Virus record (IMG/VR): IMGVR_UViG_3300031963_012969
DNA length: 64,000 nucleotides
Direction: 5' to 3' (one strand)
Origin: a virus
Position 1 is the stretch's first letter, and the number at the start of each line of letters is the position of its first letter. Shown piece by piece: positions 3,223 to 11,670 of the stretch. The notes beneath the pieces are model-generated. The model was not told the DNA's origin. It worked only from the letters and a program-made list of their open reading frames with translations, and searched no databases. A program made the position numbers and the translations under genes.

Positions 3223-6018
3223 TCAAGGAAATATTGCCTGCTTGCAATTTACTCCACCGGAATCAGCTGTAGCGGTGCATGGAAGAGAATACCATGACCC
3301 ACCGCCTCCAGGTGGCCCAACTGGACCAGTAGCTCCACTTGGACCACTTGGACCTAGAGGGCCTAATGCACCTGATGGACCCTGAGGACCTTGAGGACCT
3401 TGAGGACCCTGAGGACCTTGAGGACCCTGAGGACCTTGAGGACCTTGAGGGCCTTGAGGGCCTTGAGGACCTTGAGGGCCTGATGGACCCTGAGGACCAG
3501 TTGGACCTAGAGGACCAGTTGGACCAGTTGGACCTTGAGGACCAGTTGGACCAGTTGGACCAGTGGCTCCACTAGCACCAGTAGCACCAGTAGCACCAGT
3601 TGCACCAGTAGCCCCACTAGCTCCAGTAGCACCAGTAGCCCCACTAGCACCAGTGGCTCCACTAGCACCAGTAGCACCAGTAGCACCAGTTGCACCAGTA
3701 GCCCCACTAGCTCCAGTAGCACCAGTAGCCCCACTAGCACCAGTGGCTCCACTAGCACCAGTAGCACCAGTAGCCCCACTAGCCCCACTAGCACCAGTTG
3801 ATCCTCTAATTCCAGTAGCACCAGTAGCACCAGTAGCACCAGTCGATCCAGTTGCTCCAGTAGCACCACTAGCTCCACTAGCTCCAGTGGCTCCACTAGC
3901 TCCAGTTGCTCCAGTAGCCCCACTAGCCCCAGTTGATCCTCTAATTCCAGTAGCCCCACTAGCACCAGTAGCACCAGTAGCCCCACTAGCACCAGTAGCA
4001 CCAGTAGCCCCACTAGCCCCAGTTGCTCCAGTGGCTCCAGTGGCTCCAGTGGCTCCAGTAGAACCAGTGGCTCCAGTAGAACCAGTGGCTCCAGTTGCTC
4101 CAGTAGCCCCAGTCGATCCAGTTGGACCAGTTGGCCCAGTAGCTCCAGTAGACCCAGTTGGACCAGTAGGCCCAGTTGGACCAGTTGGCCCAGTTGGACC
4201 AGTAGCTCCAGTAGACCCAGTCGATCCAGTCGATCCAGTCGATCCAGTCGATCCAGTCGATCCAGTTGGTCCAGTTGGTCCAGTTGGTCCAGTTGGTCCA
4301 GTTGGTCCAGTAGCGCCAGTTGTCCCAGTTGGTCCAGTTGGTCCAGTTGGACCAGTTGGTCCAGTTGGTCCAGTAGCGCCAGTAGCCCCAGTAGACCCAG
4401 TAGCTCCAGTAGCCCCAGTAGACCCAGTAGCCCCAGTAGACCCAGTAGCACCAGTAGCTCCAGTTGATCCTATAATTCCAGTGGCACCAGTAGCCCCAGT
4501 GGATCCAGTGGATCCAGTTGGTCCAGTTGGCCCAGTTGGTCCAGTTGGCCCAGTTGGCCCAGTTGGACCAGTTTTCCCGATTATTCCAGTCGCTCCAGTT
4601 GGACCAGTTGGACCAGTTGGACCAGTAAATCCACTAACTCCACCAACTCCACTAGCACCACTAGCCCCAGTTGCTCCAGTGGCCCCAGTCGATCCAGTAG
4701 CCCCAGTAGCCCCACTAGCTCCAGTAGATCCACTTGTTCCAGTTGATCCAGTGGTTCCAATAGGGCCAGTAGCCCCACTTGTGCCGGTTGACCCAGTTGG
4801 ACCAGTAGGGCCAGTTAACCCAATAAATCCAGTCGATCCTGATGCTCCAATAGATCCTGTTGCCCCTATTCCAGTAGCTCCAGTAGCTCCAGTAGATCCA
4901 ACTCTACCAGTAGCTCCAATGTCTCCAGTTTGTCCTTTTGATCCATCGGTTCCACTCGCACCAGTTGCTCCAGTAGATCCAGTAGATCCAGTAGATCCAG
5001 TAGTTCCAATTGGGCCAGTAGGTCCATCAACTCCGTCTTCTCCAGATTGTCCAGTAGCACCAGTAGCACCAGTAGCCCCAATAATACCGTTTAATCCAGT
5101 GGCTCCAGTTGCACCAGTAGTTCCCATGGGTCCAGTGGGGCCAGTGGGGCCAATCGGACCTATAAAAACTCCTGGAACCCCTATTAATCCCTTAGCTCCA
5201 GTGGCACCAGTAAAACCAGTAGCCCCAGTAGCCCCAGTAGACCCAGTAGCCCCAGTAGACCCAGTAGCCCCAGTAGACCCAGTAGCCCCAGTAGCACCAC
5301 CAGCCCCAGTTGCGCCAGTCGAACCAGTAGCGCCTGTAGCACCAGTCGATCCAGTGGCTCCAGTGGCTCCAGTGGCTCCAGTAGCGCCAGTCGACCCAGT
5401 TGAACCATCAATGCCAGTGGCCCCAGTTGCTCCAGTCGAACCATCAATACCAGGAGCTCCAGTTTCTCCAGTTGCCCCGTCAATGCCAGTGGCTCCAGTA
5501 GCACCAGTGGCTCCAGTAGCACCAGTAGCCCCAACAATTCCGTTGGCCCCTGGAGCTCCGACTACCCCAACTACTCCATCTACCCCACTAGCCCCACTAG
5601 CACCAGTAGCACCAGTAGCACCAGTAGTCCCAGTAGCTCCTATATATCCAGTAGGTCCAGTTGGTCCAGTTGGCCCCACTATTGTCATTCCAGCTGGACC
5701 GGATGGACCAATTAAGCCTGGTGAGCCTATTTCCCCTGGTTCTCCAGTGATACCTGTAGAACCTTTTCTTCCAATTCTTCCCGTTAAACCCGTTGAGCCT
5801 GGAATACCTGGTGAACCAGGAACGCCTGGAGTTCCAGGCACACCATCAGAACCTGGAATCCCAGTATACCCGATGCAACCTGGAATACCTATCGTTAAGT
5901 CTTGAGACTGAGGTATTGGATATATATAAACAGGATTTTTGCAAATCAAATCCGGTATTTTTATATTTATATCGCAGTCAGATAAAACTGGTGGAGCGAA
6001 AATGCAGTCTTTTTCCAT
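3223..6018 (-). CDS. Collagen-like fibre protein 3 (931 aa)
   Basis: ~860 aa of Gly-X-Y ([12 protein letters not shown]); Cys-rich N-terminus (KDCIFAPP...) and Cys pair in C-terminus. Confidence 0.9.
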
Positions 6019-9000
6019 TTATATATAATACATTATTTTTTTATATAATAATCACCAAAAATTAATCAAACCATATTAAATTATTAAAATGAGGTTCATA
6101 TAAACATATTCTGCATTGTGAAGAACATTTTATTTGACCTTGGTTTGGTGCAGGTCCAGCTGGACCCTGAGCACCTGTTGCACCGGCGTCTCCTTGAGGA
6201 CCACTTGGACCACTTGGACCACTTGGACCTTGAGGGCCTGATGGACCCTGAGGACCTTGAGGACCTTGAGGGCCTTGAGGGCCTTGAGGACCTTGAGGGC
6301 CTGATGGACCCTGAGGACCTTGAGGACCTTGAGGACCAGTTGGACCTAGAGGACCAGTTGGACCAGTAGTACCATTTGGGCCTGTTTGGCCAATTGGTCC
6401 AGTTGGTCCAGTTGGTCCAGTTGGTCCAGTAGGTCCGGTAGGTCCAGTTGGTCCAGTAGGTCCGGTAGGTCCAGTCGGTCCAGTAGGCCCAGTGGCTCCA
6501 CTAGCCCCAGTTGCACCAGTTGCACCAGTGGCTCCAGTGGCTCCAGTAGAACCAGTGGCTCCAGTAGACCCACTAGCCCCACTAGCCCCAGTGGCCCCAG
6601 TAGACCCAGTTGCTCCAGTAGCACCAGTCGATCCAGTGGCTCCAGTGGCTCCAGTGGCTCCAGTAGAACCAGTGGCTCCACTAGCACCAGTGGCTCCAGT
6701 AGCACCAGTGGCTCCAGTAGCACCAGTGGCTCCAGTAGCACCAGTGGCTCCAGTAGATCCAGTTGCTCCAGTAGCACCAGTTGCTCCAGTAGCTCCAGTT
6801 GATCCTCTAATTCCAGTAGCCCCAGTAGTCCCAGTAGACCCAGTAGCCCCAGTAGATCCAGTTGGACCAGTTGGACCAGTGGCTCCAGTAGATCCAGTTG
6901 GACCAGTTGGACCAGTGGCTCCAGTAGATCCAGTTGGACCAGTAGGTCCAGTAGACCCAGTAGGCCCAGTAGGCCCAGTAGGCCCAGTAGAACCAGTTGA
7001 ACCAGTAGGACCAGTAGGCCCAGTTGAACCAGTTGGTCCAGTTGGTCCAGTTGTCCCAGTTGACCCAGTTGGTCCAGTTGGACCAGTTGTCCCAGTTGAC
7101 CCAGTTGGTCCAGTTGGACCAGTGGCTCCAGTTGATCCAGTTGGACCAGTTGGTCCAGTTGGTCCAGTGGGTCCGGTTGGTCCAGTAGCGCCAGTTGGAC
7201 CAGTAGGTCCAGTTGGACCAGTTGGTCCAGTGGCTCCAGTCGATCCAGTCGATCCAGTTGGTCCAGTTGGTCCAGTTGGTCCAGTGGCCCCACTAGCCCC
7301 AGTAGCCCCACTAGCCCCACTAGCCCCAGTTGCACCAGTAGTTCCCATGGGTCCAGTAGATCCAGTGGATCCAGTTGGTCCAGTTGGTCCAGTTGATCCA
7401 CTAGCGCCAGTAGGACCAGTAGGACCAGTAGGACCAGTAGGACCAGTAGGACCAGTAGGACCAGTAGTCCCAGTAGCCCCAGTAGACCCAGTAGATCCAG
7501 TTGGTCCAGTTGGTCCAGTTGGTCCAGTAGGTGCACTAGCTCCACTAGCTCCACTAGTGCCAGTTGAACCAGTTGGACCAGTTGGGCCAGTGGCTCCAGT
7601 AGATCCAATTGGACCAGTTGGACCAGTTGGACCAGTTGGTCCACTAGCTCCAGTAGATCCAGTAGCTCCAGTAGCCCCAGTACTCCCAATCAGTCCAGTT
7701 AATCCAATTATTCCAGTAGCTCCAGTAGCTCCGATAATTCCAGATGGACCTGTAGGACCGGTAGCCCCAGTAGCACCAGTTGACCCAGTTGACCCAGTTG
7801 ACCCAGTTGACCCAATTGGTCCAGTAGCTCCACTTGGTCCAGTTGGTCCAGTAATTCCAATAGGTCCAGTAATATAAGAAGATTGACCAGGAATACCGGC
7901 AGGCCCAGTTGGTCCTGTTGTCCCAGTTTCCCCTAATTTACCTGGATTACCGCTTCTACCTGTAGCCCCAATTTTTCCTGTATTACCAGTTGGACCAGTT
8001 GGTCCAGTTGGACCAGTTGACCCAGTGGACCCAGTTGAACCAGCAGGACCAGTTGGACCAGTGGGACCAGTTCTACCAATTGAACCAATAAAACCTTTCT
8101 GTCCAATAAAACCTTGTAGTCCTTGTGGCCCCGTTATTCCAGTTACACCAGTAATGCCTTGTGGTCCATCTGGACCAATAAAACCAGTAATTCCATTAGC
8201 TCCATCTAAACCATTTATTCCAGTGGTGCCAGTTGATCCAAGTATTCCATTTTCTCCAGGTGTCCCATCAATTCCAGGTAATCCTGGGTTTCCTCCTACC
8301 CCATCTTGACCCCTTGGTCCATCCTGACCTGTATTACCTGGATCGCCAGTAGATCCTGTGGCACCGGTTCCCCCTGCTTTACCGTTTATGCCTGGAATCC
8401 CAATTTCTCCTGTTGCTCCAGTAGATCCATCACTACCTTTAGGCCCTGTGATCCCGCTCTGTCCGGTAGCTCCAGTAGCTCCAATAACTCCAATTGGTCC
8501 AGTAGGGCCAGTGGGGCCAATATCTCCAATTGAGCCTTCTCCAGGTGGTCCAATGGGTCCGGTGGCCCCAGTAGATCCAATACCCCTTCCAGGATCTCCA
8601 TCAAATCCTTTTATCCCTATACTTCCTATGGCTCCTGTAACTCCTGTTGCTCCTGGTGAACCAGGAGCACCAGGAGAACCAGGCTGACCTGGAGATCCGG
8701 GACTACCAAAAACTCCAGTTGCCCCCCTACATCCATCAATTATGTCTGTATCTAATTGTATTTCTAAGTTTTCAAGTATTTCTGGCGTTTTGCACGGAAA
8801 GCTAGATATTTCTATCTCAATATTACAATTTTCAATTAATGGTGGATTAAAATCACAATCTTTTTTCATTGGCTACTAATTATTTAAAACCATAAACATG
8901 GCACACATTGATCGCAGACATCAGCAGGGTCGATACCTGGTGGACCAGTAGGGCCAGTTGCTCCTATACTACCTTGAGGACCTTGAGGTCCCTGAGGGCC

Positions 9001-11530: not shown

Positions 11531-11670
11531 GGCTCTATGTCAAATATTGTAGGGGTTACCTGCTTGGGAGACGGGCAAAGAAAAATAAAATTAGGTATTT
11601 TTACGTCACAACTTAGTATGATTGGCGGCGTAAATTCACAGTCTTTTATGTTATTTGCTGTGTCAGGCAT
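8884..11670 (-). CDS. Collagen-like fibre protein 1 (928 aa)
   Basis: ~860 aa Gly-X-Y; N-terminus KDCEFTPP..., C-terminus CDQCVPC. Confidence 0.9.

Follow-up and report, generated by a model that had tools for sequence, protein, structure and literature searches.

Three length-matched collagen genes of a divergent large myophage as candidate strands of one heterotrimeric fibre

A 64,000-nucleotide (nt) stretch of viral DNA (IMG/VR virus record IMGVR_UViG_3300031963_012969; the whole stretch is hereafter called the window) carries three adjacent collagen genes on its minus strand. Comparison of these genes with their counterparts in related phages suggests that they probably encode the three strands of one 1:1:1 heterotrimeric collagen helix, which would form a baseplate-attached fibre of a divergent large myophage. 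At 0.29 nm per residue, the ~865 residues of such a helix would extend over ~250 nm. The original prediction made for this stretch had proposed the same 1:1:1 co-assembly into a ~250-nm helix, and comparative support for it comes from the presence of either three collagen genes or none at complete loci, the covariation of chain lengths, the conserved set of chain types, the matched breaks in the Gly-X-Y repeats and the charge pattern of the sister phage L001.

Chain anatomy and covariation of length

The chains, numbered in the direction of transcription, and their terminal elements are located in the window as follows; the N- and C-terminal types are described in the next section (lengths in amino acids, aa).

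8884-11670, minus strand: collagen chain 1, 928 aa; N-terminal type C, 864 aa of Gly-X-Y, two breaks, C-terminal type alpha2
11515-11670, minus strand: N-terminal four-Cys domain of chain 1, aa 1-52; Cys 11, 21, 32 and 52
8884-8928, minus strand: C-terminal alpha2 motif of chain 1, last 14 aa and stop; three Cys
6062-8869, minus strand: collagen chain 2, 935 aa; N-terminal type B, 862 aa of Gly-X-Y, four breaks, C-terminal type alpha1
8729-8869, minus strand: N-terminal four-Cys domain of chain 2, aa 1-47; Cys 5, 15, 26 and 47
6062-6148, minus strand: C-terminal alpha1 motif of chain 2, last 28 aa and stop; three Cys
3223-6018, minus strand: collagen chain 3, 931 aa; N-terminal type A, 866 aa of Gly-X-Y, three breaks, C-terminal type beta (C-x10-C-K-Q-A-I-F-P)
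5875-6018, minus strand: N-terminal four-Cys domain of chain 3, aa 1-48; Cys 5, 15, 26 and 48
3223-3291, minus strand: C-terminal beta motif of chain 3, last 22 aa and stop; two Cys

PF01391 Collagen was the sole Pfam family detected on the three chains (E = 5.5e-121, 2.3e-121 and 1.6e-126; cut-off 27.2 bits), and no further collagen-like open reading frame was found within the window. The anatomy given in the original prediction was borne out throughout. The three adjacent genes of 931, 935 and 928 aa, for which it had given ~860 aa of Gly-X-Y each, contain spans of 866, 862 and 864 aa, respectively, with 287, 284 and 287 triplets counted in runs; the non-collagen ends comprise 43-50 aa at the N-terminus and 14-28 aa at the C-terminus. 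Alignment of the N-termini confirmed a Cys pattern common to the three chains, which in all three reads D-C-x-F-x-P-P-x4-C-x10-C, followed by G-C at the first triplet. The C-termini likewise contain the expected cysteines (three, three and two), and 867, 868 and 866 residues separate the G-C cysteine from the first C-terminal Cys in chains 1, 2 and 3. The breaks in the Gly-X-Y repeat that had been listed are all present (GMTIVG, GVFIG, GIG; GRGIG, GEG, GQSSYITG; GIIPG, GIG), together with one more, GASAPTG, in the middle gene. Shared zoning and diverged N-terminal halves are both visible in the alignment of the paralogs, the amino acid identity being 46-57% in columns 1-400 as against 71-89% in columns 500-900.

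Relatives were sought through the collagen chains and through the two genes that flank them, which are located as follows.

11646-12506, minus strand: 286-aa protein, immediately upstream of chain 1, overlapping its start by 25 nt
2442-3164, minus strand: 240-aa protein, immediately downstream of chain 3; two beta-rich domains predicted

Six aligned N-terminal domains proved too variable to serve as a locus-search query, a word-based search of proteins with the first 60 aa of chain 1 as the query gave no matches, and an ESM Atlas look-up of a short beta chain returned generic collagen clusters only. The sister phage L001, whose neighbour proteins are 65-75% identical to those of the window, was reached via the 240-aa neighbour and is represented by three assemblies with identical open reading frame lengths (L001, L002 and L008); a more distant phage, L010, was reached via a DNA pattern for the N-terminal Cys motif. 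Scans of IMG/VR and JGI loci with the neighbour proteins yielded two relative species only. A hidden Markov model profile of the 286-aa family gave 153 matches among 1.84 billion proteins, and the contigs of twelve of these were inspected. The resulting loci compare as follows.

Window: three collagen genes, 928/935/931 aa
L001: three collagen genes, 719/700/703 aa
L036: three collagen genes, 518/445/450 aa; first chain with a 68-aa non-collagen insert
L010: three collagen genes, 143/138/143 aa
L032: three collagen genes, 118/118/116 aa; exactly 20 unbroken triplets each, genes abutting
L031: three collagen genes, 115/119 aa, the last one cut by the contig end
L043: at least two collagen genes, 198 aa and one cut by the contig end
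L029: at least one collagen gene, cut by the contig end
L030, L033, L034/L035, L042 and the P0016 contig: no collagen gene; a 286-aa family gene, then a 240-aa family gene (the P0016 contig was scored as zero-copy from gene sizes only)

Complete loci thus carry either three collagen genes (five lineages including the window) or none (five loci); one, two or four copies were not seen at any complete locus, and the P0007 contig has an uncalled gap of 1164 nt at the position of the trio. The pattern named in advance as speaking against co-assembly, namely relatives with one, two or four copies of uncorrelated length, is the opposite of that found, for all five complete trios are length-matched. 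In every relative that has it, the trio occupies the same site between two conserved genes in the baseplate/fibre run. Length also covaries in the related genomes: chain lengths are matched within genomes and spread ~8-fold between them, from ~116 to ~930 aa. The corresponding distances from the G-C cysteine to the first C-terminal Cys are 652/643/645 residues in L001, 450/388/393 in L036 (~382 for its first chain without the 68-aa insert), 87/80/82 in L010 and 63/63/60 in L032. Phylogenetic analysis of the 286-aa family placed the zero-copy loci in a single clade (support 80/86) that is sister to the clade of trio loci (92/88), with L043 lying outside both on a very long branch that makes its placement unsure. 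Within the trio clade, collagen length climbs stepwise towards the window, and branch lengths across the trio divergence exceed one change per site.

The contig of a close relative (P0004) contains a further 199-aa gene with a Pfam Collagen match (18713-19312), ~3.5 kb downstream of its trio. Downstream of its own trio the window extends for another ~3.2 kb, and no counterpart of this gene is present there.

Register, chain types and charge along the helix

To compare the internal register of the chains, the position of each break was measured from the G-C cysteine of its own chain, and coincidence within +/-6 residues was assessed by a permutation test. Breaks co-localise between the chains of L001 (p 0.004), L036 (p 0.001), L010 (p 0.0035) and, marginally, of the window (p 0.04). 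The coinciding breaks differ between chains in both sequence and length and are often only 0-2 residues apart. The matched levels of L001 lie at 297/296/298, 372/367/372, 386/386 and 415/415, the last with a break at 419 in the third chain; those of L036 lie at 241/240, 348/347 and 364/363/363. The 68-aa insert of L036 chain 1 lies at +364, opposite short breaks at +363 in the other two chains (GDANANMG and GLSSPGQQGTG). Cumulative residue counts are equal at many internal levels despite unequal numbers of breaks in between. The insert itself (L036 chain 1, 10840-12396) is Cys-rich and non-collagen, is located near the C-terminal end of the helix and is followed by five triplets and the alpha1 motif.

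Each complete trio combines one alpha1 (C-x2-3-C-x-[IT]-C-[LF]-[YF]), one alpha2 (C-x2-C-V-x-C-x-W) and one beta C-terminus (C-x5-10-C-x-Q-[AG]-[IK]-[FY]), the beta chain always being encoded by the third gene. The three N-terminal types of the window (A, B and C) have orthologous counterparts in L001, with 61-73% identity between genomes compared with 28-40% between types. The pairing of the two ends differs: the window has C-alpha2, B-alpha1 and A-beta, whereas L001 and L036 have C-alpha1, A-alpha2 and B-beta. Recombination inside the collagen region has therefore re-paired the ends, with the full set being kept at each end. A mixed trimer would retain the composition of both its ends after such re-pairing; three homotrimers would be turned into three new fibres. 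The C-terminal cysteines total 8, 10, 8 and 8 in the four trios counted (L036 was left out, as its insert adds Cys). In L001, an extra Cys in alpha1 goes together with an extra Cys in beta, and in L031 the second N-terminal Cys is missing from all three chains.

Charge pairing was scored by counting opposite- and like-charge pairs at axial and lateral Y-to-X contacts of a helix with one-residue stagger, significance being assessed by shuffling of the signs; this contact geometry is that of designed collagen heterotrimers. For L001, the best mixed registers scored 15 and 14, whereas the homotrimers reached 7, 1 and -9. Shuffling gave p 0.002 for the top mixed register and p 0.03 for the difference between the mixed and homotrimeric scores, and basic residues of the other two chains lie opposite an acidic cluster of the beta chain. 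The trios of L036, L010 and L032 have too few charges, or acidic ones only, for charge scoring. Complex prediction for the L032 trio (118+118+116 aa, with beta as the partner) scored 0.29, the mark being 0.34; this run without controls gave no verdict and is counted neither way.

The DNA of the window paralogs is 53-60% identical at aligned positions over most of the first 400 columns and 75-85% identical in the repeat-rich part. Among identical residues, identical codons account for 33-45% in most N-terminal blocks and for 54-71% in the repeat-rich part, which is close to the expectation from codon usage alone (roughly 0.3-0.5 in the N-terminal 400 columns), and the longest exact DNA match between paralogs is 110 nt. 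Because codon identity is near random and long identical tracts are absent, the window paralogs have not been homogenised recently, and recent gene conversion was rejected as the sole cause of the length match. The slippage-prone GAT/GST/GPT arrays of the window nevertheless agree to 2 residues in 867. Since zoning is alike within genomes and different between them, earlier concerted evolution probably supplied parallel changes in length; selection for equal length would still be needed to explain the present match.

Alternative explanations and a model of assembly

Several observations weigh against a single mixed helix. The case for a 1:1:1 heterotrimer is built from the comparison of sequences, and the location of the chains in the virion is read from gene order only. 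As the trio and zero-copy loci essentially form two clades on the neighbour-gene tree, the three-or-none pattern amounts to only one or two events; the real weight lies in the retention of all three chains, at matched lengths, through an increase in helix length from 60 to 867 residues over a deep divergence. The length match is looser in some relatives (9 residues in L001 and 7 in L010). In the window, only two break levels coincide, none of them common to all three chains, and the charge scores (11 for the mixed helix versus 6, -2 and -3) are not significant (sign-shuffle p 0.06-0.19). Shared ancestry of the paralogs confounds the matched breaks and is a confounder that cannot be removed, and older gene conversion could have contributed both to the matched lengths and to the matched break positions.

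A serious alternative is that the genes encode three homotrimeric fibres on one baseplate, whose lengths would be equalised by recombination or conversion between the paralogs, or by a common reach if the fibres were, for example, bundled or tied to common structures at both ends. Zoning that is common within a genome and differs between genomes makes concerted evolution evident, the recombined N- and C-terminal types demonstrate that exchange between paralogs occurs through the collagen region, and the chain C homotrimer of the window has a positive charge score (+6). We nevertheless consider three homotrimers unlikely, because the arrays agree to the residue level described above despite near-random codon identity and the lack of long identical DNA tracts, because cumulative lengths agree within 0-2 residues at many levels despite breaks of different number and kind, and because the insert confined to a single chain of L036 stands exactly opposite breaks in the other two. 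The score of -9 for a homotrimer of the L001 beta chain, whose acidic cluster faces basic residues of its partners, and the fact that no lineage lost or gained a chain while lengths changed ~8-fold also argue against it. A further alternative comprises mixed trimers of another or variable composition (for example 2+1), or chains that form head or whisker fibres or a non-virion product instead of tail fibres. The two alpha C-termini are more alike than either is to beta, the placement draws on gene order, and neither a fold nor a family could be recognised for the neighbouring proteins of 286 and 240 aa, all of which would accommodate this option; given that all three C-terminal types are kept in every complete trio and that the genes sit within the baseplate/fibre run, fixed between two conserved genes wherever they occur, we regard it as highly improbable.

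For the favoured 1:1:1 heterotrimer, we infer along the following lines how the chains co-assemble, in which direction they fold, what part the Cys motifs play, including as the registering knots put forward in the original prediction, and which partners the fibre attaches to. The intergenic gaps in the window trio measure 14 and 43 nt, and no terminator-like site was found in the gaps between the collagen genes; the three chains would be made together from adjacent, co-transcribed genes. The three distinct C-terminal Cys motifs (alpha1, alpha2 and beta, with 3+3+2 Cys) would select one chain of each kind and set the register, associating either by disulfides or by a metal site of 8 Cys. Helix formation would be nucleated in the adjacent imino-rich zone, in which each X position is a Pro (the window has GPQ repeats here and L001 has GPPGLS/GVTGP repeats), and the helix would zip towards the N-terminus. 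There, the three four-Cys domains (12 Cys) would clamp the end and attach it to the putative adaptor paralogs encoded upstream. The 240-aa protein may occupy the distal end, because its gene directly follows the 286-aa family gene in the phages devoid of collagen, and the collagen would act as a spacer of adjustable length.

Genomic setting and relation to known collagens

The window consists of one strand-consistent run of structural genes on the minus strand and belongs to a very divergent large myophage. The collagen trio lies just downstream of a Baseplate_J-like gene, with sheath and capsid genes further upstream on the same strand.

21463-23148, minus strand: Baseplate_J-like gene
38486-41242, minus strand: sheath gene (PHROG 279, E 3e-12)
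45380-46372, minus strand: capsid-like gene
49146-50474, minus strand: prohead-protease-like gene
2132-2437, minus strand: 101-aa CxxC protein, downstream of the 240-aa gene
385-2127, minus strand: 580-aa protein with a signal-peptide-like N-terminus

A megablast search of GenBank phages with the DNA of the baseplate region gave no match, and for the sheath protein only distant matches were obtained, in phages of Salmonella and Vibrio (26-29% identity). The head and tail modules are separated by three clustered tRNA genes (Glu-TTC, Thr-TGT and Met-CAT) at 45048-45281 on the minus strand. The collagen gene leaders (5990-6090 and 8850-8910, minus strand) are A/T-rich and lack a Shine-Dalgarno-like sequence. 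Leaders of this kind would fit a host that makes no use of such sequences, Bacteroidota for example. The G+C content of the collagen region is 53%, compared with 35% in the flanks; a foreign origin was rejected as its cause, the rise being read as a by-product of Gly/Pro/Ala/Thr repeat codons.

The 286-aa protein, which we presume to be an adaptor on the baseplate side, is the last of five consecutive paralogs (286, 236, 307, 542 and 320 aa; 11646-16733, minus strand). They share the N-terminal motif N-x-x-R-x-[FY]-P-[FI], are mostly Cys-rich and are syntenic in those relatives whose contigs cover this region; the five appear to form a set of adaptors at the periphery of the baseplate. The 240-aa protein is presumed to be the distal partner of the fibre. 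Neither PHROGs nor Pfam yielded a family for the nine nearest neighbouring proteins, and AlphaFold2 models of the 286-aa and 240-aa proteins (predicted local distance difference test scores of 72 and 76, respectively) gave no fold match in the PDB at E <= 0.001.

Downstream, the genes for the 101-aa and 580-aa proteins are syntenic in the relatives read far enough. Orthologs of the CxxC protein (L034 11579-11836, L030 5761-6084 and L010 8204-8533; 85-109 aa) conserve the C-x-x-C, and the gene follows the 240-aa family gene both in trio phages and in collagen-free phages. The hydrophobic, signal-peptide-like start of the 580-aa protein ends in A/S-Q-S and is unusual within a phage fibre module; counterparts are found in L010 (8530-10086), in L036 (16143-16763) and, with 75% identity, in L001.

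The nearest analogue in design appears to be complement C1q, an animal ABC heterotrimer whose A, B and C chains are selected by the globular gC1q head. By analogy, the two systems share three different chains from clustered genes, equal collagen lengths, Cys close to where the helix ends on the N-terminal side and, more clearly in the relatives than in the window, a break in the Gly-X-Y repeat at the same level in different chains, with a sequence that differs from chain to chain. Like ABC-type collagens, the trio comprises three distinct chains encoded together, and equal helix length is kept as length changes. Unlike C1q, the phage chains contain neither a C1q nor any other Pfam domain besides the collagen repeat; they lack a globular C-terminal chain-selecting head (gC1q or NC1) and end in Cys motifs of only 14-28 aa. 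Their helix is up to ~ten times longer, and no hydroxyproline is expected in a phage.

Among bacterial and phage collagens, BclA of Bacillus has Thr-rich GPT/GAT/GST triplets, as do the window chains. Together with Scl1 and Scl2 of Streptococcus, EPclA and P5 of PRD1, it resembles the trio in having Gly-X-Y repeats without the animal modification machinery, a fast-changing repeat length and, as proposed for the trio, a role in surface or tail fibres. Prokaryotic and phage collagen-like proteins have been described as homotrimers that derive from a single gene and carry a globular domain for trimerisation (PMC8968730), and prophage EPclA proteins as collagen-like tail-fibre proteins of E. coli O157 (PMC3368898). 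In contrast to Scl, BclA, EPclA and PRD1 P5, the trio consists of three paralogous chains whose lengths co-vary, rather than of one chain type with an adjoining globular trimerisation domain.

Animal collagens with Cys at their ends offer further comparisons. Minicollagen domains have six Cys at fixed spacing and are present at both ends of the chain, whereas the N-termini of the trio read C-x9-C-x10-C...G-C and its C-termini C-x2-3-C-x2-C or C-x5-10-C; collagen III carries a C-terminal cystine knot, whose Cys cross-links at the helix end would have a counterpart at the ends of the trio. Like Hydra minicollagens (PMC2289959), the short trio members (115-143 aa, ~20 triplets) consist of a short helix flanked by Cys-rich ends; minicollagens, however, show no sequence relationship to them and are not encoded as co-varying trios. 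As with the C-propeptide of collagen I (PMC5353611), a C-terminal element beside an imino-rich nucleation zone would select and register the chains; animal C-propeptides, by contrast, are globular, comprise ~250 aa and are cleaved off, whereas the candidate selector of the trio is 10-20 aa long and stays on the chain.

Full-text literature searches found no natural heterotrimeric phage or bacterial collagen, and the mixed three-chain design has so far been described only for animal collagens. The chances are about even that the trio represents a natural ABC heterotrimeric collagen outside animals, in which chains are kept in register from 20 to ~285 triplets and both their choice and their register are determined by three C-terminal Cys motifs of 10-20 residues. 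Registered heterotrimeric collagen is hard to make in bacteria and currently borrows animal domains such as collagen IX NC2 (PMC8968730). If the proposal is correct, the C-terminal motifs would be the smallest known device for the selection of collagen chains and would provide a minimal, bacterially expressible tag that is portable to designed heterotrimeric collagens, and the trios would form a natural length series of ~20 to ~285 triplets for studying register over 250 nm. Mixed collagen helices would then not be an animal invention, and the phages would possess a new kind of tail fibre shaft, the length of which has been tuned over an order of magnitude.

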